Below are positions 2,869 to 44,574 of a stretch of DNA of 64,000 nucleotides, in pieces. The translations under genes were made by a program, and so were the position numbers. The notes under the pieces are model-generated. The model had not been told where the DNA came from. It saw nothing but the letters and a program-made list of their open reading frames with translations, and did no database searches. Source of the stretch: Escherichia phage vB_EcoM_LNA2; sequence record MZ311865.1. The stretch is one strand, 5' to 3'. Position 1 is the first letter of the stretch, and each line of letters opens with the position of its first letter.

Positions 2869-3528
2869 ATGGCAACACCAAAAGTGTCATTTTCGCCTAG
2901 TGATATTCTATTTGGGTTGCTAGATCGTATTTTCAAAGATAACGCTACTGGAAAGGTTTTAATGTCCCGAGTAGCGGTAATTATTCTTTTGTTCCTAATG
3001 GCACTAATATGGTACAAAGGAAGTATTTTGCTGGATTATTATGTAAGAGCTAAGTATGATACTTATACTGAAATAATCCAAAAAGAACGAGCTTTACGTT
3101 TTGAATCTGCGGCTCTAGAACAACTGCAAATAGTTCATATCTCATCTGGTGCAGATTTTAGTGCTGTGTATTCTTTCAGACCTAAAAACTTAAATTATTT
3201 TGTCGACCTTATAGCTTATGAAGGCAAACTACCTAGCACAATTTCTGAAAAGTCCCTTGGTGGATTCCCGGTGGATAAAACGGCCAATGAATATATAATT
3301 CATTTAAGTGGCCGTCATTTCTCGTCTAAATCAGAATTTGCATTTTTGCCTACAAAATCTAAGACTGCCGAACTTTCTTATATGTATAGTTGTCCATACT
3401 TTAATTTGGATAACATCTATGCTGGAACTGTGACGATGTATTGGTATAAGGGGAATAATATACTTGAGGAAGATCGCTTAGCGGCTATATGCAACCAAGC
3501 GGTCCGAATACTAGGAAGGGCTAAATAA
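2869..3528 (+). CDS. t: Holin T
   Basis: 219 aa, N-terminal TM segment, close to recalled T4 holin; SD GGAGG upstream. Confidence 0.9.
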   Translation: MATPKVSFSPSDILFGLLDRIFKDNATGKVLMSRVAVIILLFLMALIWYKGSILLDYYVRAKYDTYTEIIQKERALRFESAALEQLQIVHISSGADFSAVYSFRPKNLNYFVDLIAYEGKLPSTISEKSLGGFPVDKTANEYIIHLSGRHFSSKSEFAFLPTKSKTAELSYMYSCPYFNLDNIYAGTVTMYWYKGNNILEEDRLAAICNQAVRILGRAK

Positions 3529-3801
3529 TTAGTTGTTAGAATACATCGCTAAATGACGATAAATATTTTCAAAACCTTCATTGAATTCACTAATCAGTGT
3601 TTTCTTTTCTTCGGCAGTTAAATTTGTAATTAGTTTTCTGAACGAATTCTGATTTAGCTGCCGACCATCTTTTTTAATTCCAATCTCATTCAAGAATCCG
3701 ATGAAACTTGCTCGGTCTTCAACAATATCTTCCCTAGAGAATTTAATCAAAATAGAAGCAATAGTAATAATTTCACGTACGATTTCAATGTCTTTATTCA
3801 T
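3529..3801 (-). CDS. asiA: Anti-sigma70 AsiA
   Basis: 90 aa MNKDIEIVREIITIASILIKFSREDIVE... matches recalled T4 AsiA; convergent with t. Confidence 0.9.
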   Translation of the reverse strand: MNKDIEIVREIITIASILIKFSREDIVEDRASFIGFLNEIGIKKDGRQLNQNSFRKLITNLTAEEKKTLISEFNEGFENIYRHLAMYSNN

Positions 3802-35270: not shown

Positions 35271-35819
35271 TTAACGAGCCCATTTGATAATTTCTGTAAT
35301 CAAATTATTACGTTCGCTTGCATTAAATCCTATAACTTTGTTAGCACCATCATGATTAAGTAATTGATACGTTTGGATTTCGTTATGAATTGCAAACTCT
35401 TCAAAATATGAAATGACTGTATTAAAACCAAATGAAGACAAAGTAATAAGGTCGTCTTCAAAACTTTCAGTCATTTCGTTACGTGTTAAAATAATTGTGA
35501 ACACATCATGGTTTTGGCAAAGACGAACATAGTCCTGTTCATAAACGTCAAGAACCGAGTCCGCATCTTGTCGAATACGTCCGTAAACCCAGTTACTAAT
35601 ATATCCACGGTCTAATAGATAAATCTTAGTAGGGTCTAAATAATTCAACATCGTTTCGAAACAGCCAACTTCATTTCGAGACTTAACATCGAAACGTCCA
35701 TCAACTGTTCGTTTAGGGAAATCAATCTTTACATATCTTTCACTAATTTCCATTATGTCATTAATGAAAGTTGTTTTACCAGCATTATCTGGGCCATCTA
35801 CTAAAATAATTTTAGCCAT
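35271..35819 (-). CDS. P-loop kinase (nucleotide/nucleoside kinase-like)
   Basis: 182 aa; Walker A VDGPDNAGKTT; LLDRGYIS resembles dNK-type motif. Confidence 0.6.
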   Translation of the reverse strand: MAKIILVDGPDNAGKTTFINDIMEISERYVKIDFPKRTVDGRFDVKSRNEVGCFETMLNYLDPTKIYLLDRGYISNWVYGRIRQDADSVLDVYEQDYVRLCQNHDVFTIILTRNEMTESFEDDLITLSSFGFNTVISYFEEFAIHNEIQTYQLLNHDGANKVIGFNASERNNLITEIIKWAR

Positions 35820-35820
35820 T

Positions 35821-36720
35821 TTATTCCTCGATTACGACATCTTCATATTTAGGTATATTATACGGTGAAGAAATTAAAGCGTTAAAGTAGATGAACTCAC
35901 CAAGACCTGGATGGAATACTTCTTCAGGATTTTCGAAATATTGAATTTTCGGACGTCCTTTAAGAATTTGATAGTACTCAGTTTTAGTTGGTTTAAAAAT
36001 TCGAATCAACGCTTCTTCAGGATACTTATTTCTGTCGAAGCTATTATTTGGATCGGTTATATAAAGCGGTTGACCTAATTGAATTGCGCATTCAACAACT
36101 TGTTCAAAACGATAGCATGGGTCACTAATTCGAAATGGATGAAAAATACCATCTAGATGAATAGGAGCCAAATCACCTACAAGACGCTGCATGATGGAAG
36201 GACGTATAACTTTCTGCGTTACGATAATCTTATTACCATCTGCACCAGCGTTAACCAGCACTTCTTTTTGACGTTCATTCAACACAGTAGTTTGAAGTGA
36301 ACGATTAACCGACAACATATCGGTTTTTAAGAATTCGTCAATATAAAAACGTGGTTTATTAGGGTCTGCAGTGATATTGAAATTGAATTCCGCATCAAAA
36401 GCGCCGTCATATCCAGTGATATCTGTGATTAGAAAATCACAGTCATAATAAGCAATTAATGAATCAACCACAAATTCATTTTCAGACCAGAAATATTTAC
36501 GAGTGTTATACGCGTTATCTTTATACCATAATGGAACAAACTTAAATTCTGGAAAAAGACGTTCGCATTCTTTAATATCAGATGCATTACGTGGATATGT
36601 AATCACATCACCCGGATTAGCACGGTGCAAATGAAGTTGGAAGTTGCCATCCTTAAGGATAGCATACTGTCCAGTTTCATAAGACCGCATACTCAAGATA
36701 GGTACGCGGAAAATAGCCAT
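35821..36720 (-). CDS. Hypothetical protein, 299 aa (occupies T4 beta-gt position)
   Basis: ORF track; no recognised motif; TAATG-coupled to TS-like gene. Confidence 0.5.
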   Translation of the reverse strand: MAIFRVPILSMRSYETGQYAILKDGNFQLHLHRANPGDVITYPRNASDIKECERLFPEFKFVPLWYKDNAYNTRKYFWSENEFVVDSLIAYYDCDFLITDITGYDGAFDAEFNFNITADPNKPRFYIDEFLKTDMLSVNRSLQTTVLNERQKEVLVNAGADGNKIIVTQKVIRPSIMQRLVGDLAPIHLDGIFHPFRISDPCYRFEQVVECAIQLGQPLYITDPNNSFDRNKYPEEALIRIFKPTKTEYYQILKGRPKIQYFENPEEVFHPGLGEFIYFNALISSPYNIPKYEDVVIEE

Positions 36721-37436
36721 TAGTCAAGGAATCCTTTAACATAATCAAAATCACGTTCAAACACATGGGCACTTACCATGGTATGAGTATAATCACCAAC
36801 TTCTACACCACATTCTTTAGCGATATAATGAAGTAATTTTCCTTGGAGATAAAAATCCAACTGCATAACAACAGCACAGTTCTGAGAACGCATATGACAG
36901 TGGGTATAAAGCTTACCATCACGAATATAATAAGTCACTGAGTCAGTACATGGATATTCAAGTGTTTCGTCCGAATCAAGCAAAGCCTGATCAGAACTTT
37001 CTAGAATTTGGAACACAACTCTTCGAGAGTTAGGCTTCTCTTTAAGTTCTTTTAGAAGAGCTGGTAATTGGGCCGCAATGCGAGGACCATAGAAAGTGTT
37101 GAAGTTCGCCGGCAAAACATCTGATTTTGGTTTAGAAATAAATTTAGCGACATTAGGATATGCCTTAAACGCTTCTTCTGCGTTGGTACCACCAGAAATC
37201 ATAAACTTCCAGAAGTCTTCGGCATATTCATAAGAGATGCGGTTAATACGTGGGTCGGTCATTTTGAATGATGATGGAGTGTCAACAACTACTGTCATAG
37301 ACCCAATTTCATTACAACGTCCAATACGAGAATCAGTTACGAATTCCGGGTTTTCTAAAATTTCACGATTGACAGCTTTAAATGCGGATTGAAAATCTGC
37401 GGCTTTAATATATTTCATTGTGTTATGTTTTCCCAT
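36720..37436 (-). CDS. Thymidylate-synthase-family pyrimidine hydroxymethylase-like enzyme (gene 42 position, divergent)
   Basis: 238 aa; NSRRVVFQ, YPCTDSVTYY and MRSQN resemble recalled T4 gp42 DSRRGIMIY, FMCTNTVQY, MRSND, but overall divergent. Confidence 0.65.
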   Translation of the reverse strand: MGKHNTMKYIKAADFQSAFKAVNREILENPEFVTDSRIGRCNEIGSMTVVVDTPSSFKMTDPRINRISYEYAEDFWKFMISGGTNAEEAFKAYPNVAKFISKPKSDVLPANFNTFYGPRIAAQLPALLKELKEKPNSRRVVFQILESSDQALLDSDETLEYPCTDSVTYYIRDGKLYTHCHMRSQNCAVVMQLDFYLQGKLLHYIAKECGVEVGDYTHTMVSAHVFERDFDYVKGFLD

Positions 37437-37714
37437 GTTTACCTCAATACAATTTATTATATACTCAATTCATAAAGCTTATTTGAATTTCTTAGCGATG
37501 TTGATATAACGTAAAGCTTCAGCATCGATATTTCCAAGAACACTATGAAGAAATGCATCAGCGTAGTATTACAGTTGAACAGGTTCTTTAATCACTTTAG
37601 CCGCTTTAGTTTCAAACAGGCCCATCAGGGCCTTTTTAAGAATTTGTTCGTTAGTGTTCAGTTTCGTAGTCAAAATCTCTTCATTAAGTTGGTGGTTAAA
37701 AGTTTTTCTAGAAA

Positions 37715-38875
37715 TCATTCCGGGTACCTCAAAGCGTCATCAGAGTTAGTTATATCAATAATAGATATAGAGTTTTCTGATAACCCATTTTTAGATAACT
37801 GACGTTTATAATATCTTTCACAATATGTACACGTTGACCCACAGATTTCATTAGCACAATCGAAATCTGGATGTCTGAACCACCTTTTTTCTAAAAAGCC
37901 ATCTAACAAAGAGGTTTCAATATTTACTGTATGTGAAAACTCAGTTTCGTTTTCAAGAGTGAAAATAGTCTCTAAAGGCTTCCACAGTTCTAACAAATTA
38001 CCTTCAAACTTTTCAGAAGCGTATGCTTCAAGAACTTTCAAAATGTAGTCTGTGCTACCTGTACGTCCTGAAACTTTGAATTGAGTGATACCAATATCAT
38101 TATAAAGTTTCAAATCTTGAGGACGAACAAAACGAGTTCTCAACCAGTTAAATGGGTCTGTATCACGAGCTTTAATACAGTGCTGCATAGGATATCCGTT
38201 TAAGGATTTAGCATCATCAGCTGTAACATCAGTACTATGGAAAATATAGCAAGAGTCACGATAGCTACAATGTGTTGTATACCCTTTACCAGCATTAGAA
38301 CAGAACTCATTTACAAGAACTTCAAATATTATATTGTTCTTATTACAAAACTCTGCTGCACGCTTCAGGAAAGAAACTGAACGGTTCTTATGAATTCCAC
38401 AGCAGACCTTTTTGATATTATATTGGTCGTGCAAGTATTTGATTTGAGTTACAGCATCGACATGTAGAATTGTTGAAACTTCAATCTCAATGTCTTTATT
38501 GACTTCACGAACAATTTCCATAACAACAGGGTTAGCGATAGTAATACGCCATACGCCTATTGACCAAAGATACTGAACATAATCCTGAATAGCTTTCTTC
38601 TTCCACTCAACTAGTTCTCTTTTTGAACCAGGATTTATCGTGTTGAGTGTATAGTTAAAGCAAATACCTAATTCGTTACAACGTTTAACGTAATCTTCTA
38701 ACATCTTTTTGTCAACGTCAGGAAGCCTAAAATCAGGTCTGGCTGCTACAAAAGCCATTTCTCTTGTAGAGCCGTATACTTCGTTTATCAAGCTATTAGG
38801 ATAAGTTTTATTGAGCTCTACGATTTTATCAAGAAGAGCTAAATCAAAATTCGTTCCGATTTTAAAAGTATTCAT
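37715..38875 (-). CDS. Hypothetical enzyme with C-terminal Cys cluster, 386 aa
   Basis: ORF track; DCANEICGSTCTYCE cluster; no confident family. Confidence 0.5.
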   Translation of the reverse strand: MNTFKIGTNFDLALLDKIVELNKTYPNSLINEVYGSTREMAFVAARPDFRLPDVDKKMLEDYVKRCNELGICFNYTLNTINPGSKRELVEWKKKAIQDYVQYLWSIGVWRITIANPVVMEIVREVNKDIEIEVSTILHVDAVTQIKYLHDQYNIKKVCCGIHKNRSVSFLKRAAEFCNKNNIIFEVLVNEFCSNAGKGYTTHCSYRDSCYIFHSTDVTADDAKSLNGYPMQHCIKARDTDPFNWLRTRFVRPQDLKLYNDIGITQFKVSGRTGSTDYILKVLEAYASEKFEGNLLELWKPLETIFTLENETEFSHTVNIETSLLDGFLEKRWFRHPDFDCANEICGSTCTYCERYYKRQLSKNGLSENSISIIDITNSDDALRYPE

Positions 38876-38933: not shown

Positions 38934-39335
38934 TTATAGATTCGGTTTATACGATTTAAATGTTTCGAATTCGCCTTTATTCATAAGAGCTTTGAATTCG
39001 TCAGGACGCATAGCTTTGTCGTCGATAATCCAATCATATACTGGTTTATGTGTTAGCAAATTATGGTACTTCAAGCCAATGTTTGCCAAGTTCTGAATCA
39101 GACTTGGGAGAATGTCAATTGCTATACGACCAGGACCTACTGACTTCATACCGCGAGCAGTGTAAAGCGTTATGGTATGCCCTGCATCATACAGAGCATT
39201 AATGGCAGACACCATTTCGGTGTCTGGTTTGAAGTTCACGTAATCACGATTGTTATTCCATTCCGTGATGCAATCATCGACATCAAAACAAAGATTAAGC
39301 ATGTTTTCTACACGGTGCATTAGATTCGTTCCCAT
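38934..39335 (-). CDS. HAD-superfamily phosphatase (KdsC/GmhB-like small phosphatase)
   Basis: 133 aa; motif I FDVDDCIT, motif II LYTAR, later K and IIDD. Confidence 0.6.
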   Translation of the reverse strand: MGTNLMHRVENMLNLCFDVDDCITEWNNNRDYVNFKPDTEMVSAINALYDAGHTITLYTARGMKSVGPGRIAIDILPSLIQNLANIGLKYHNLLTHKPVYDWIIDDKAMRPDEFKALMNKGEFETFKSYKPNL

Positions 39336-41005
39336 TGATGAGTGATATCGCCACCGATTGGACGATAGGAAACACCAGTTTCTTTATCAGTTAGTACCCA
39401 TTTACCAGGATTTTTTGTAATCAGAGTAGCCGTTACAGGTTCTGCTACGTCATAACTAATAGAGCCGTCTTGAAGTACACGGCCCATATTACGTAATTGC
39501 TTAGTCAGAAGTTCCATACCTTTATAATATGCGGCTACCGCTTTAAGTGGATTATTCTTGAAATAACCACCTAATGCAATCCAGATAATTGCTACAGCCA
39601 AATGATGATACTCGTTAAACGAACTCATCTTTCCATATTTGTAAACTAGTGGATTGATGTTAATAGTCACATTACAAGTTGTTTCGTCAATAGTAAACTG
39701 TCCCCAGGTCGGATTAGCGTTGAATTCATCATAACCTGAAACAGCATAAAGCACTTTAGCTTCATCGTACAATTTTGGCCCGTAAATCTTGGTTTCACCA
39801 AAATATCCACGAGGGTCGATAAACTTGACTTCGCCGTTATCAGTAATCATAGTATTACTGAAGTTCGGGTCGCCGTGAATAACAGAGTACTGTCCCTGAG
39901 AACGGTTATGATAACGAATAAGGTGTTCTAAAGCTTGTTTCAGCATTGGCTTCAGACGTCCAATCTTAGTGTAGTTCACATGTGTGATTTTACCAAATGA
40001 ATCAATCAATGGTTGAATGCTTTCACAACGATCAATAACTTTCGTATAGAATTCTTTAGTGAAATCACGACGAACAGTTTCAGGACTTACAAAATAAGTG
40101 TCTGTGCTGAATTTCAGTGCATCTAAAATTGCACCAACAATTTGTGGACGAGCAAGACTTGATTTGGATTTAATATATTCAAATGCCGGCTTACCTTTAA
40201 TGCGTTCCATTTCAAAGTTATTTTCATTAACAGAAACTAACTGAGGGACTGAATCTGATTTCACTTTAAGATACCATGAAATCTCATCTTTCTGAAGAGC
40301 TCGACCCTGTTCGGTTAATGCGAATTTAGTTACAGTTTCTTCACCAATTTCAACTGCATTAAAACTACGATTAAGTTCACGAACTTCATGAGCTTTTTCA
40401 AGTTTAGGCATATCACCTAAATCAATTAGATTCATAAGCTCTGATTTATTGAATGTGCTGCCGTAAAGGAATTCTACGAAATCACGTCCTTTGCAGTATT
40501 CATGAATTTCCTCATCAGTAGAACCCATATAGAATTCCCAGTCTTTGAACTGATAAATTCCTACAACATTACCACCTGTTGAACCTACGTTAGTGATATT
40601 TTCACCGTCGAAATTATATCGACATTCGTCACCCTTAACATAGATTGCGTTAACATTCCAAGACCATGAACCAAAATCGGGAATAATATCACACCAGTTA
40701 ACAATTACGTTATGGCCGTCTAAATCTTTGTGTAATTTAGCAAGAGCATAAGCAGAACCATACGCTTCATCAACTGTACGAATAGTCACATTGAACTCTT
40801 CTTGCTCACAATAAGCTCGAACAGTTTCAGCAAATTTTGAATGAACTACTACAATAATTTCATCTGCGCCAAGGTCAGAATAAATTGTATACAAATTGCT
40901 CAGAATAGTGTCTTGTTTATAGTTAACAAGCACCTTAGGAATATGATGCGTTATTGGATACAAACGAGTTGCTAATCCAGCACCAAGAATAACAGCTTTT
41001 TTCAT
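39320..41005 (-). CDS. Bifunctional sugar-1-phosphate nucleotidyltransferase / APH-type sugar kinase
   Basis: 561 aa; N-term KAVILGAGLATRL (G-x-G-T-R nucleotidyltransferase signature); C-term VIHGDPNFSNTMI...KFIDP (APH/choline-kinase catalytic motif). Confidence 0.65.
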   Translation of the reverse strand: MKKAVILGAGLATRLYPITHHIPKVLVNYKQDTILSNLYTIYSDLGADEIIVVVHSKFAETVRAYCEQEEFNVTIRTVDEAYGSAYALAKLHKDLDGHNVIVNWCDIIPDFGSWSWNVNAIYVKGDECRYNFDGENITNVGSTGGNVVGIYQFKDWEFYMGSTDEEIHEYCKGRDFVEFLYGSTFNKSELMNLIDLGDMPKLEKAHEVRELNRSFNAVEIGEETVTKFALTEQGRALQKDEISWYLKVKSDSVPQLVSVNENNFEMERIKGKPAFEYIKSKSSLARPQIVGAILDALKFSTDTYFVSPETVRRDFTKEFYTKVIDRCESIQPLIDSFGKITHVNYTKIGRLKPMLKQALEHLIRYHNRSQGQYSVIHGDPNFSNTMITDNGEVKFIDPRGYFGETKIYGPKLYDEAKVLYAVSGYDEFNANPTWGQFTIDETTCNVTININPLVYKYGKMSSFNEYHHLAVAIIWIALGGYFKNNPLKAVAAYYKGMELLTKQLRNMGRVLQDGSISYDVAEPVTATLITKNPGKWVLTDKETGVSYRPIGGDITHQWERI

Positions 41006-41058: not shown

Positions 41059-41190
41059 TTCATACTTTGCTTGTAGTCCAATCATAATCCATCCAATTAC
41101 AAGTGTTGGAATCATTACTGGAGCCGTTAAGCTCCAGTAGATAGTCATGGCAAGCATCAATAGTAAAAGTCCTATTGTTATTGCTTTCAT
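41047..41190 (-). CDS. Small hydrophobic protein, 47 aa (not in ORF track)
   Basis: Hand translation MKAITIGLLLLMLAMTIYWSLTAPVMIPTLVIGWIMIGLQAKYECFN; ATGA overlap with SIS gene. Confidence 0.35.
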   Translation of the reverse strand: MKAITIGLLLLMLAMTIYWSLTAPVMIPTLVIGWIMIGLQAKYECFN

Positions 41191-41822
41191 TGTTCGCCTC
41201 GTAACATGGCACCTAGTGCACCGCCTGGATGGAACTTAAGGAAGTCATTAGAGGTAAATCCACGTTCAGACGAAAGGTTGATAGCAAACGTATCGATAAG
41301 CGCTAACAACAATGTAGTGGACATAGTCGGAGCCAGAGAATTCTCATCAACCTCTACCGCGATGCCTGTACAGAAAGAGTAATCAAAAAGGGCTTCATTT
41401 TCTTGTGGAATGTCTGGGTTACAATGCAACAGAATCTGTTTGACGTTCGGTCGAATCATTTTAAGATGCTTAGCCACGCCTATCATTTCTTCAGTTTTAC
41501 CAGAACGACTAATATGAATCAACACATCATTAGGCGCAATGAATCCTGCATCACCGTGAGAATAATGCCCAGTGTTCAAGTACATACTCGGGATACCGAG
41601 TGAAGCAAATGTCTCAGAAGCTTTAGTTGCAATATTAGCATTCTTACCAACACCTGTAATAATTACTCGGCTTTCATAATTACTAAGTCCCGGGCGTCGA
41701 AGAGTTTCTAGAATAGCATTATAACGAGCAGGGTTTTGACTAATTACTTTGGCCATAGCGGCCAAAGAAGAAGCTTGTTTTATGATTGCGTCAATAGCGA
41801 TAGTAATAGGAGTAGTTTTCAT
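41187..41822 (-). CDS. SIS-domain sugar-phosphate isomerase, KdsD/GutQ arabinose-5-phosphate isomerase-like (no CBS domains)
   Basis: 211 aa; GVGKN...TFASLGIPS...HGD.G...ISRSGKTEE...LAPTMSTT...FHPGGALG parallels E. coli KdsD SIS domain as I recall it. Confidence 0.65.
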   Translation of the reverse strand: MKTTPITIAIDAIIKQASSLAAMAKVISQNPARYNAILETLRRPGLSNYESRVIITGVGKNANIATKASETFASLGIPSMYLNTGHYSHGDAGFIAPNDVLIHISRSGKTEEMIGVAKHLKMIRPNVKQILLHCNPDIPQENEALFDYSFCTGIAVEVDENSLAPTMSTTLLLALIDTFAINLSSERGFTSNDFLKFHPGGALGAMLRGEQ

Positions 41823-41862: not shown

Positions 41863-44574
41863 TCAAAAATCGAACATATCGAACAGAGATGCTTTCTTCT
41901 CGTAATCGAGTTTCGCTGCTGATGTGAATCCTTCAAGTGGTTTAATAAATGTCTTCTCAAGGAGAACAGTGTAGTCCATCCAATGAAGTACATCGTCTTT
42001 AATTAAATCTGTGATTTCAGTACCAGAAGGCCATGCGATACATTTATCACCGAATGGGTTTCCTTCACGTAAAGGCAGAACATATACTTTTTCACCTTCT
42101 ACAACTTGTGGTGCATCGATATTACCTTTGATAGCCCGGTTATACGTCAGAATTCCACGAATATGGAACGGGCATTTAGGACCAGGGAATCCACCGACGT
42201 CATATTTAGCAATGTTATTCGCAGAAGATACCGACGCGATGCTAATATAATTCAATTGACGGAATTCTTTTTCAAACTCTTTAAAATATTCTTGTAATGA
42301 TTCTTCACCTTCTTGAAGCATACGACGAATACATTCTTTAAGAGCTTTCTGTACTGCTTTAGGAGTCGAAGATTTCTGAGTCTCTAGACCCATGATTTTG
42401 AGTTTAGGCTCAGCGTAACGAGTACCTTCCATATCCCACACGTTTAATGCATAACGTTTCTTACCAGTCCAAAATCCGCCAATACCTTTAGAACCGAGTG
42501 GAGGCCCAGCGATAGCTTCTCGGTCCATGAACATTAAGTGTTGTTTATTGTTCATGTATTCACACATTTCACGGAAACCTCTATCAATAGCAGGTTCCAT
42601 ACGTTCATGTGCAAACTTATCTAAGAAGTCTACCCAATGGTTGGTATCACGGAATTTAGATTCACCAACCTTATCAATAATTTTATCTGCAGATACGTAA
42701 ATGGAGTCTGTATCACCATATAGAACGAAAGCTTCACCTTCTGTACCACAAACTTCATTCAGATATTCATTAACTTTACGTTCAATCCACTGTAAAGCCA
42801 TTTGCCCGAATGTTGTGATTGCAGTAGCATTACGCAAATCATAATAACGGAACCAAACGTTTCCAAGTGCACCATAAAGCGAGTTGATGAGCAATTTACG
42901 GTTAATCTGTGCAGTCATACCTGCAACTTCAGTACGTTGAGCTCTAAACAACATTTCATTAAGAGATTTAGCAGACAACTTTTTAATCTTTTCTTTAATC
43001 TCGTCAGTGAAGTCGAAACGATAATCAACATCTAATGGTTCGTCAACAGAAAGATTAGGATTATGCAATGCCTCTTTAATTATTTCACCATTACGTTGAG
43101 CTGCAAGCATGTAACCTTTATGTTCTTTACGTTGATTAAAGACCTTAGTGATTTCAGTTGGAACTACACCATCACGGTCTTTATAATACATCATGCCGTT
43201 AGGAGAACAACTGTACACATCAGAAGGACGTTCAGCAACAGCGTTAATATAATCATGCAATGGAGCTACTTTAAACGTTCCTGCTATTGTTTCTGGGCTA
43301 ATATTCACTTGGCGAATGATGCTTGGATACAGAGATGTAAGGTCGAAACTCATTACATATTTGTATCGATTTGGAATAGGTTCCTTAACAAAAGCGCCAG
43401 GATAAGGTTGAACCGGGTGAGAACGACCTTGTGGAATCACCTTGTTCTGCTCTTTAAGGCTATTAAAAATAATAGCATCCCATGTTTTAATTGGACTAAA
43501 CACAGATTGAATCTGTATCTTAGCATAATAACCCATGTCCAAACTCAAGTTGATGAACTGACGCTTAGCATCAATTTGCAATACACGATACACGTCGATA
43601 ATGTTATAAGAAATATATCGTTGGTGATTGCTTTCACGAAGCTTAGAAATAGGGCCGTCATATTTCAGTTTACCAACGTTCAATTCAAATTCTGAAATGT
43701 AATCCAGAGAATACGACGGTTGATTGGTAAAAGAGAATTTTTTGTAAAGGTCAATGTAATCAAGAACAGAGATACCGAACAATGTAATGATTTCACGAGA
43801 ACCATACATGTTTTCGATAACTTTAACACGAGTTTTACGATGTGGTGATAAACGTTTCGCAGTAGATTCGCCAAAAATATTCTTGATTCGGTTATACACA
43901 TATGGAATATCAAATGACTCAACGTTCCATCCAGTCAAAATGACAGGAGTTTTCTGTTGCCAGAAGTTGAGATATTCCATCAACAATTCTTTTTCGTTAT
44001 CGAACGGCATATAAATGATTTTATCGATAATTTCAGATGGAACTTCATCACCACCTTGTTCTTGAAGTTTAGCAGCGATTTCAATAGACCATTCTTCTAC
44101 ATTACCGTATGGAGAATTCAATAGATCAAATACGTAGAACCTGTCGTCAATTGAGTCATAATGGGTGATAGCATCAATCGGATGTTTTGCTTGTGACGGC
44201 TCAGGGAACCCATCTGGAGATGTTACTTCGATGTCGAAGTTAGCCACACGAATTTTTGTATGGTCGTATTTGATTTCATAGTTATAAGTGTCAGACAAAT
44301 ACGCCAATTTGAAATCGTCCATGCCAAGTGCTTCAAGTCCGATATCTTCCATGCGTTTAATCCATTGGGAGGCATCACGCATATTAGCGAACAACTTACG
44401 AGTACACGGCTTACCGTAGATATCGAAATATTTCGTAGCCTGACTTTCCGGACAATGAGCAAACAGTGATGGTTTATATTCTACTTCACGAGTACGTTCA
44501 CGGCCATTAGAATCGATGTAACGTTCAAAAATTGAATCACCAATCTGTTCAACCGTTAAGTAAAATTCTTTCAT
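41863..44574 (-). CDS. 43: DNA polymerase gp43 (family B)
   Basis: 903 aa; exo motifs FDIE; pol motifs DxxSLYPS and YGDTDS. Confidence 0.95.
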   Translation of the reverse strand: MKEFYLTVEQIGDSIFERYIDSNGRERTREVEYKPSLFAHCPESQATKYFDIYGKPCTRKLFANMRDASQWIKRMEDIGLEALGMDDFKLAYLSDTYNYEIKYDHTKIRVANFDIEVTSPDGFPEPSQAKHPIDAITHYDSIDDRFYVFDLLNSPYGNVEEWSIEIAAKLQEQGGDEVPSEIIDKIIYMPFDNEKELLMEYLNFWQQKTPVILTGWNVESFDIPYVYNRIKNIFGESTAKRLSPHRKTRVKVIENMYGSREIITLFGISVLDYIDLYKKFSFTNQPSYSLDYISEFELNVGKLKYDGPISKLRESNHQRYISYNIIDVYRVLQIDAKRQFINLSLDMGYYAKIQIQSVFSPIKTWDAIIFNSLKEQNKVIPQGRSHPVQPYPGAFVKEPIPNRYKYVMSFDLTSLYPSIIRQVNISPETIAGTFKVAPLHDYINAVAERPSDVYSCSPNGMMYYKDRDGVVPTEITKVFNQRKEHKGYMLAAQRNGEIIKEALHNPNLSVDEPLDVDYRFDFTDEIKEKIKKLSAKSLNEMLFRAQRTEVAGMTAQINRKLLINSLYGALGNVWFRYYDLRNATAITTFGQMALQWIERKVNEYLNEVCGTEGEAFVLYGDTDSIYVSADKIIDKVGESKFRDTNHWVDFLDKFAHERMEPAIDRGFREMCEYMNNKQHLMFMDREAIAGPPLGSKGIGGFWTGKKRYALNVWDMEGTRYAEPKLKIMGLETQKSSTPKAVQKALKECIRRMLQEGEESLQEYFKEFEKEFRQLNYISIASVSSANNIAKYDVGGFPGPKCPFHIRGILTYNRAIKGNIDAPQVVEGEKVYVLPLREGNPFGDKCIAWPSGTEITDLIKDDVLHWMDYTVLLEKTFIKPLEGFTSAAKLDYEKKASLFDMFDF

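Follow-up and report, generated by a model that had tools for sequence, protein, structure and literature searches.

A thymidylate kinase-like protein beside the 5-hydroxy-dCMP synthase of an RB69-like phage: a candidate kinase for modified deoxycytidylate

Why would a T4-like phage that has a gene 1-type dNMP kinase keep another small P-loop kinase among its base-modification genes? The question is raised by an open reading frame in the 64,000-nucleotide stretch of Escherichia phage vB_EcoM_LNA2 (MZ311865.1) that was analysed here, referred to below as the window. An earlier sequence-only reading of this stretch had pointed out, at 35271-35819 and with no strand given, a 182-aa protein with a Walker A motif, GPDNAGKTT (residues 9-17), and a second motif, LLDRGYIS (68-75), and had proposed that it acts on a modified nucleotide or on a sugar intermediate. 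The frame is present as described, on the minus strand. The gene 1 kinase was said to be encoded elsewhere in the genome, and indeed RB69 gp1 found no match in the window by tblastn (best E 1.6).

The kinase gene and its neighbours

The window belongs to an RB69-like Mosigvirus (T4-like), with approximately 98% identity to RB69. The 5.5-kb stretch surrounding the kinase shares 98% nucleotide identity with RB69 and about 150 relatives, including HY126, and the gene order over the 5.5 kb compared is that of RB69. The RB69 gene numbers are used below. In minus-strand order, the features are:

41863-44574, minus strand: DNA polymerase, first in the order
41187..41822, minus strand: gp55, arabinose-5-phosphate isomerase (KpsF/GutQ/KdsD-like; NCBIfam TIGR00393 E 2e-32, KdsD E 7e-31)
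39320..41005, minus strand: gp52:53, bifunctional nucleotidyltransferase/kinase (AfhE-like), a single ORF of 561 aa (NCBIfam sugar-1-phosphate nucleotidyltransferase; assignment PMC13326640)
38934..39335, minus strand: gp51, HAD-type phosphatase (AfhF-like; PHROG 1238; assignment PMC13326640)
37715..38875, minus strand: gp50, Peptidase-U32-family member of the cluster with a putative role only (Pfam PF01136 E 7e-11; weak UbiU match, E 9e-4)
between gp50 and gp48, minus strand: small ORF
36720..37436, minus strand: gp48, thymidylate synthase (TS) homologue, 5-hydroxy-dCMP synthase with the RSQN signature (MRSQN motif; Pfam PF00303 E 2e-15)
35821..36720, minus strand: gp46:47, glycosyltransferase (GT) 'arabinosyltransferase 1' (GT1), 299 aa, a single ORF here (PHROG 3891 E 1e-155)
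35271..35819, minus strand: gp45-type kinase with thymidylate kinase (TMPK) fold, orthologue of RB69 ORF045c/gp45, ATG-initiated ORF of 182 aa
33999..35171, minus strand: uvsX, flanking the cluster downstream (Pfam T4_UVSX_C E 1e-38)

The kinase ORF is far beyond what chance would give and is a real, conserved gene. Full-length homologues were found by tblastn in 343 phage records at identities down to 35%, and residues 1-180 match PHROG 761 with an E-value of 5.1e-45; the label 'thymidylate kinase' that both PHROG 761 and RefSeq attach to the protein is an annotation, not a tested function. Besides gp45 itself, the window holds no member of the family. The stop codon of gp48 and the start codon of gp46:47 have one base in common, the kinase ATG comes 1 nt after the gp46:47 stop with no overlap problem between the ORFs, and a GAGGA ribosome-binding site for the kinase is located within the last codons of gp46:47. 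The three genes form a translationally coupled unit in which the kinase is third. A scan for promoters and terminators between 35000 and 42000 returned counts equal to the shuffled expectation.

The cluster was recently described by Lee et al. (NAR 2026; PMC13326640), who reported that the DNA of RB69 and of Acinetobacter phage DLP3 carries mono- to tri-arabinosylated 5-hydroxycytosine (5hoC), the arabinose being ether-linked directly to C5, and who located the modification cluster to RB69 gp45-gp55 and DLP3 gp76-83. There, RB69 gp48 was shown experimentally to be a flavin-binding 5-hydroxy-dCMP synthase, marked by a D169N change (PMC13326640). The neighbour that had been read as a hydroxymethylase carries this same RSQN (D169N) signature in the window and has an RB69 orthologue that makes 5-hydroxy-dCMP (PMC13326640); it is no hydroxymethylase, and the modification here is arabinosyl-5-hydroxycytosine. 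Nor does the kinase follow the TS-like gene immediately, as had been stated, since gp46:47, the putative first arabinosyltransferase (PMC13326640), intervenes.

As for gp45, it is already listed as a predicted nucleotide kinase and is a fixed part of the 5-hydroxycytosine glycosylation cluster. In the published paper it appears as 'Nucleotide kinase' only, and it was gp159, the RB69 gp1 homologue, that converted 5hodCMP to 5hodCDP in vitro; the in vivo assay likewise used gp159 rather than gp45, and the TS homologue and gp159 sufficed to bring 5hoC into the DNA of E. coli (PMC13326640). In the Figure 3 legend of bioRxiv version 1, 'DLP3 gp78 and RB69 gp45' are the cognate dNMP kinases, whereas gp169 (DLP3) and gp159 (RB69) have taken their place in the published version (PMC13326640). 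This swap may be a labelling correction or may reflect a changed experiment. We found no biochemical result on gp45 in the literature covered, which included PMC13326640 and its first bioRxiv version.

Fold, motifs and predicted acceptor site

The AF2 model of gp45 is confident (pLDDT 90.7) and has the three-layer P-loop NMP-kinase fold, for which a fold search returned TMPK structures as the closest. A family profile searched against PDB sequences found SPbeta YorR (7e-6), yeast TMPK (4e-5) and vaccinia TMPK (6.5e-5), with the yeast, vaccinia and Aquifex enzymes spanning 4e-5 to 9e-5. In the alignment with yeast TMPK, GPDNAGKT pairs with GLDRTGKT, FPKRT with FPERS and DRGYISNIVY with DRYVYSGVAY. 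When the P-loop was left out of the profile, no PDB relative was found at E<1, so that the likeness to TMPK depends on the first 90 residues of the sequence and on the fold. The sequence-only reading had allowed for homology to an unrelated ATPase family, and this did not materialise, TMPK and SPbeta YorR being nearest in the profile and fold searches. Its description 'dNK-like' was imprecise, as motifs and fold are TMPK-like; the combination that we took to define a dNK, a PF01712 match together with a Glu general base in an E-P-x motif, was not found in gp45. Neither the sequence nor the structural comparison with T4 gp1 (1dek/1del) gave similarity by our criteria.

The window protein had no match to PF02223 even at E<=1, and so did not pass the Pfam gathering threshold; faint or precomputed PF02223 matches occur in some distant gp45 relatives only. 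Other Pfam and NCBIfam matches to the window protein (AAA_14, MMR_HSR1, with E 0.04-0.1; IS4, spurious) were not meaningful, and a single-sequence phmmer search against the PDB gave P-loop noise only (RecA, thioredoxin). Among 1.84 billion representatives, the gp45 family is small, with 316 clusters at E<=1e-3, of which 45 reach E<=1e-10. Compared with the TMPK family proper (PF02223; yeast 1tmk, vaccinia 2v54, Thermus 5x7j), gp45 is approximately 30 residues shorter, is only 14-19% identical, falls below the Pfam threshold, has no helix after the position of FPER, lacks the thymine-O4 Arg, the P-loop Arg and the E. coli-type LID Arg, and is always linked to a cytosine-modifying TS homologue. 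From its sequence, gp45 is best placed as a divergent branch of the TMPK superfamily and not in the TMPK family proper. YorR (PDB 2axp/3kb2) is an uncharacterised structural-genomics protein with a degenerate P-loop (GPDCCFKST); to our knowledge it has no known function and does not adjoin a TS homologue.

The motifs on which the comparison with TMPK turns are the following:

35769..35795, minus strand: Walker A/P-loop GPDNAGKTT, residues 9-17, aligned with yeast TMPK GLDRTGKT
35709..35720, minus strand: FPKR, residues 34-37, counterpart of the TMPK 'FPER', aligned to the yeast and human FPERS
35646..35681, minus strand: predicted base-binding helix SRNEVGCFETML, residues 47-58 (helix 48-59 in the AF2 model)
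35592..35618, minus strand: LLDRGYISN, residues 68-76, the TMPK/dNK 'DR(Y/H)' catalytic motif that follows strand 3, with a Gly inserted ahead of the aromatic residue
35445..35483, minus strand: LID-equivalent segment R113-N-E-M-T-E-S-F-E-D-D-L-I125, with R113 retained

In an alignment of 42 diverse members, G9, D11, K15, F34, K36, D70, R71, S75, N76, Y79, R113, D122, D123, I125 and N133 are invariant, and P35, G41, F43, E50, V51, F54, E55, T56, L58, H156 and N160, among others, are near-invariant. D11 of the P-loop is as in the 'GxDRxGK' of type-I TMPK, and N12 stands in place of the P-loop Arg. The catalytic motif continues S75-N76-x-V-Y79 and also aligns to DRFVYSNLVY of YorR. In TMPK, the arginine of FPER binds the phosphate of the acceptor nucleotide, and gp45 has kept K36 and R37 of FPKR, a retention that points to a nucleoside monophosphate as the acceptor.

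TMPK also has an Arg one turn past the stacking Phe that reads thymine O4 (human R76). On the predicted base-binding helix of gp45 the stacking residue is likely F54, flanked by the acidic E50 and E55, and the only conserved Arg on helix 48-59 is R48 at its start; E50, V51, F54, E55, T56 and L58 are each at least 90% conserved in the 42-sequence alignment. The column of the thymine-O4 Arg holds E50 (HMMER, and hhalign with human TMPK) or L58 (hhalign with E. coli TMPK), in low-confidence and conflicting alignments for which the human and E. coli sequences compared by hhalign had been entered by hand. An enzyme whose acceptor had changed from thymine to a derivative of cytosine would be expected to lose the O4-reading Arg and to have acidic residues nearby, and gp45 tentatively fits this. 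With the same hand-entered E. coli sequence, hhalign pairs EDDLI with ELDRI, putting L124 of gp45 in the column of the E. coli-type LID Arg, and aligns the invariant R113 with an earlier LID Arg of that enzyme. The LID-equivalent segment is the block of lowest pLDDT in the AF2 model (70). Given N12 and L124 at the positions of the P-loop and LID arginines, the catalytic competence of gp45 is assumed here.

Distribution of the kinase with 5-hydroxy-dCMP synthases

By tblastn, 343 phage records had the kinase and 348 had GT1; for the RSQN synthase there were 373 (E<=1e-20), and the excess of synthase over kinase is made up by Pootjesviridae, about 25 records. Within host genera the counts of kinase, GT1 and synthase coincide: 176/176/176 for Escherichia, 57/57/57 for Acinetobacter, 15/15/15 for Shigella and 7/7/7 for Proteus phages, with equal or nearly equal numbers in the other genera. 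In IMG/VR, 44 of 51 loci with an RSQN synthase have a match to the kinase HMM (E<=1e-3). In three further loci, L086, L090 and L092, there is a weaker TMPK-like ORF in which a P-loop and a DR-like motif can be recognised, and the last four end at a contig edge, so that a kinase is present in 47/47 evaluable loci.

The order TS-GT-kinase is contiguous in RB69-like and Acinetobacter phages, in Pootjesviridae (RL38J1 gp216-215-214) and in metagenomic loci, including contigs whose kinase is only 31-41% identical; in the Acinetobacter phages two more GTs follow. JS98 has the order kinase-TS-GT, the three genes still being together. Most GTs of the RSQN loci are of the GT1 type, which in L080 and L086 carries a fused HAD domain; in L078 and L084 the GT is an unrelated protein of 446-457 aa beside an epimerase. 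In locus L007, the TS homologue that accompanies a GT and a distant TMPK-like kinase is dCMP-specific and of the RSQD (non-hydroxylase) type. In Pootjesviridae, a dNMP kinase, gp219, is annotated in addition to gp214. Outside classical T4, then, cytosine-modifying TS homologues are constantly accompanied by a TMPK-like kinase.

Separately, fusions to MBD4-like and UDG-like DNA glycosylase domains occur in some distant members of the gp45 family. For these kinase-glycosylase fusions IMG/VR provided no genomic context, and the one informative metagenomic contig ends at the fusion gene.

Candidate substrates of gp45

We give a little better than an even chance to the reading that gp45 is an ATP-dependent kinase of TMPK fold for the phage's modified deoxycytidylate. 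The conserved core of three genes, 5-hydroxy-dCMP synthase, GT and kinase, is best explained as giving these phages DNA with 5-O-glycosylated cytosine, and the simplest version is that gp45 would take the product of the TS homologue, 5-hydroxy-dCMP, to the diphosphate. Its role would then parallel that of T4 gp1 on hm-dCMP. The gp1 kinase is in this sense a functional analogue of gp45, turning the product of a TS homologue into a diphosphate (hm-dCMP in T4, 5hodCMP for gp159 in RB69; PMC13326640), and it is acidic like gp45 (net charge -10 and pI 4.7 for gp45, net -14 for RB69 gp1).

The pathway would begin with gp48 hydroxylating dCMP to 5-hydroxy-dCMP, a step shown in the literature (PMC13326640). 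gp45 would bind the modified deoxycytidylate in a TMPK-type acceptor site, with the 5'-phosphate held by FPKR, R42 and R48, the base stacked by F54, E50/E55 occupying the place of the thymine-reading arginine of TMPK, and Y79 facing the 2' position. Transfer of the ATP gamma-phosphate via K15/T16, D70-R71 and R113 would yield the diphosphate. The host nucleoside-diphosphate kinase would then form the triphosphate, the phage DNA polymerase would incorporate it, and glycosyltransferases would complete the modification.

If so, gp45 would complete a minimal tool-kit of hydroxylase, kinase and GT that replaces cytosine by sugar-coated 5-hydroxycytosine, by which the phage may escape restriction, CRISPR and DNA-glycosylase defences. 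A kinase accepting 5-hydroxy- or 5-O-glycosyl-dCMP would also be useful for the enzymatic synthesis of modified dNTPs and for the engineering of hypermodified DNA. As a plain 5hodCMP kinase, gp45 looks redundant because gp159 already performs this reaction; extra flux, different kinetics or a different substrate form could each account for having both, and a mere second 5hodCMP kinase would be routine pathway bookkeeping. The relation of gp45 to the gp1-type kinase might accordingly be one of added flux or of specialisation.

The substrate of gp45 bears directly on a gap in the pathway as published in 2026, where it is stated explicitly that the first arabinose might go onto the nucleotide or onto DNA (PMC13326640). 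If glycosylation were pre-replicative, GT1 would arabinosylate 5-hydroxy-dCMP, gp45 would be specialised for the 5-O-arabinosyl-5-hydroxy-dCMP that the gp1-type kinase would refuse, and the polymerase would incorporate the glycosylated dCTP analogue; the gene order TS-GT-kinase would then equal the order of the pathway. We consider this unlikely, although several observations speak for it. gp45 would gain a non-redundant job, 5hodCMP being covered by gp159. The kinase adjoins a GT1-family gene even in very distant phages (L005, L006, L009, L012 and RL38J1 gp215/214), and it diverges much faster than the synthase (37% versus 79% identity to the JS98 proteins). The acidity of the GT1 proteins (net -10 to -19) would be unusual for a DNA-binding enzyme, and individual GTs failed to arabinosylate 5hoC-DNA with UDP-Araf or UDP-Arap (PMC13326640). 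That last result is given as 'data not shown', however, and inactive protein could explain it; the later arabinoses are added on DNA, and the unglycosylated route works with the TS homologue and gp159 alone (PMC13326640). Moreover, TMPK-like kinases are also found beside RSQN synthases with unrelated GTs (L078, L084) and beside an RSQD synthase (L007), for which the simplest common substrate is the unglycosylated nucleotide. We also know of no characterised phage DNA glycosylation that is not post-replicative (T4 alpha-GT and beta-GT), which counts against this reading; if true, it would be the first pre-replicative pathway of DNA glycosylation and would explain why a second, fast-evolving TMPK-like kinase stands beside the first GT in every 5-hydroxycytosine phage. 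That gp45 is instead a genuine thymidylate kinase, or a dNMP kinase serving as a general back-up, whose place in the cluster has nothing to do with the modification, is quite unlikely: the TMPK fold and motifs and the RefSeq/PHROG label agree with it, but the position of the thymine-O4-reading Arg is taken by E50 or L58, gp1 is already present in these phages and its T4 orthologue is annotated as handling dTMP, and the gene occurs only in phages with an RSQN synthase, which it follows when the gene order changes.

The core of the sequence-only reading, an additional P-loop kinase of nucleotide type that belongs with the base-modification genes and may act on a modified nucleotide, holds up; its other suggestion, a sugar intermediate, fares less well. 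The kinase shares its operon with the arabinose-activation genes and might phosphorylate an arabinose phosphate, or recycle UMP/UDP for the supply of UDP-arabinose. Against this, gp55, gp52:53 and gp51 account for the whole route from Ru5P via Ara5P, Ara-1,5-P2 and Ara-1-P to UDP-Araf, the kinase step being assigned to gp52:53 (AfhE), in its C-terminal domain (PMC13326640, citing He et al.). gp45 keeps the nucleotide-monophosphate motifs of TMPK, its closest folds are deoxynucleotide kinases and not sugar kinases of the shikimate or gluconate type, and Pootjesviridae and marine loci, which use other sugars and lack the arabinose genes, have the kinase too, all of which makes the sugar branch very unlikely. 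Finally, the lead towards hydroxymethyl-base DNA kinases would, by analogy with the 5-hmU DNA kinases (5-HMUDKs) of M6, ViI and SP10, have gp45 phosphorylate the 5-hydroxyl of 5hoC in DNA. Like gp45, these enzymes (M6 gp54, ViI gp67/gp243, SP10 gp186) are small P-loop kinases (~187 aa) from phage pyrimidine-hypermodification clusters, where they co-occur with DNA-glycosylase-like proteins (PMC8989533), and MBD4-like or UDG-like glycosylase fusions are found among distant gp45-family members. When the lead was followed up with M6 gp54, only 23 columns, the P-loop residues, aligned with the gp45 family (hhalign). M6 gp54, a proven 5-hmU DNA kinase (PMC8989533), acts on DNA, has neither the DR nor the FPKR motif and has a basic pI of 8.7; gp45, by contrast, is very acidic and retains the FPKR motif by which TMPK binds the phosphate of a mononucleotide. 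RB69 DNA has no reported phosphorylated base, and O-glycosylation from a UDP-sugar does not require an activated acceptor. We regard a DNA-base kinase as most improbable.

Co-divergence of kinase and GT1 was also considered as a possible sign of a glycosylated substrate and was discarded: identities are 66% for GT1 and 37% for the kinase in JS98, and 68% and 72%, respectively, in Enterobacter phages.

The U32-family protein gp50 and its neighbours

Two features upstream of the 5-hydroxy-dCMP synthase gene (gp48) are considered here:

37715-38875, minus strand: gp50, a U32-family protein with a weak match to UbiU (E 9e-4)
37480-37718, minus strand: small ORF between gp50 and gp48, the counterpart of RB69 ORF049c

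Among U32 enzymes, TrhP, RlhA and UbiU/V catalyse hydroxylations that depend on prephenate and do not require O2. In L012, a related T4-like contig, the U32 gene is directly adjoined on its upstream side by a bona fide chorismate mutase gene (3469-3732; CM_2, E 1.2e-13). Because of this neighbour, the UbiU match and the prephenate dependence of such hydroxylases, gp50 might allow 5-hydroxycytosine to be made anaerobically, complementing gp48, which depends on O2. The label used for gp50 by Lee et al. (2026; PMC13326640) is 'sugar or heterocycle reductase'. RB69 ORF049c (79 aa) gave no match to Pfam, and is thus not evidently the chorismate mutase found in L012. In the window, its counterpart carries an in-frame stop at codon 50 (TAA vs. 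GAA in RB69), and all that remains is a 49-aa ORF.

Intact reading frames and the naming of the dNMP kinases

The glycosyltransferase (35821-36720, minus strand) and the nucleotidyltransferase/kinase (39320-41005, minus strand) are each encoded by one intact ORF in the window, of 299 and 561 aa, respectively, while the RB69 GenBank record divides them into ORF046c/047c and ORF052c/053c. These intact frames support the published claim that the ORF splits in RB69 are sequencing errors. The sources also differ on which dNMP kinases were expressed together with the synthase: these are gp45 and gp78 according to the Figure 3 legend of the preprint (bioRxiv 10.1101/2025.06.16.659550), but are instead given as gp159 and gp169 in both the legend and the text of PMC13326640.

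Divergent kinases and domain fusions

Kinase counterparts of gp45 were found in Pootjesviridae, with the P-loop GLDR(T/S)GKD:

L008, 6748-7383: RL38J1 gp214
L090, 2246-3004: kinase counterpart
L092, 5753-6433: kinase counterpart

This P-loop has Asp in place of the usual Ser/Thr of Walker A, and RL38J1 gp214 has Pro-Arg in the alignment column of the DR motif. The Pootjesviridae kinases may be catalytically unusual or inactive.

Among distant members of the gp45 family, DNA-glycosylase domains are joined to the kinase C-terminus (P0082, P0083, P0088, P0090, P0093, P0098, P0099, P0149, P0159), with eight fusions of about 314-357 aa having an apparent C-terminal glycosylase-type domain. Weak Pfam HhH-GPD matches were seen in P0082, P0083, P0088 and P0093; the P0083 domain is MBD4-like (PDB MBD4 match, E 4e-9) and retains the catalytic Asp. 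In one kinase fusion the attached domain belongs to the UDG superfamily (PF03167, E 7e-11). Next to the fusion gene of contig L005 (70-1092), on its downstream side, come a GT1-like gene and a DNA polymerase of family A.

Lastly, in two loci of environmental T4-like phages (L080, 11220-12848; L086, 10707-12368), a GT1-type glycosyltransferase carries an N-terminal KdsC/HAD-type phosphatase domain, a fusion that places the first transferase and the sugar-activation branch in a single polypeptide.
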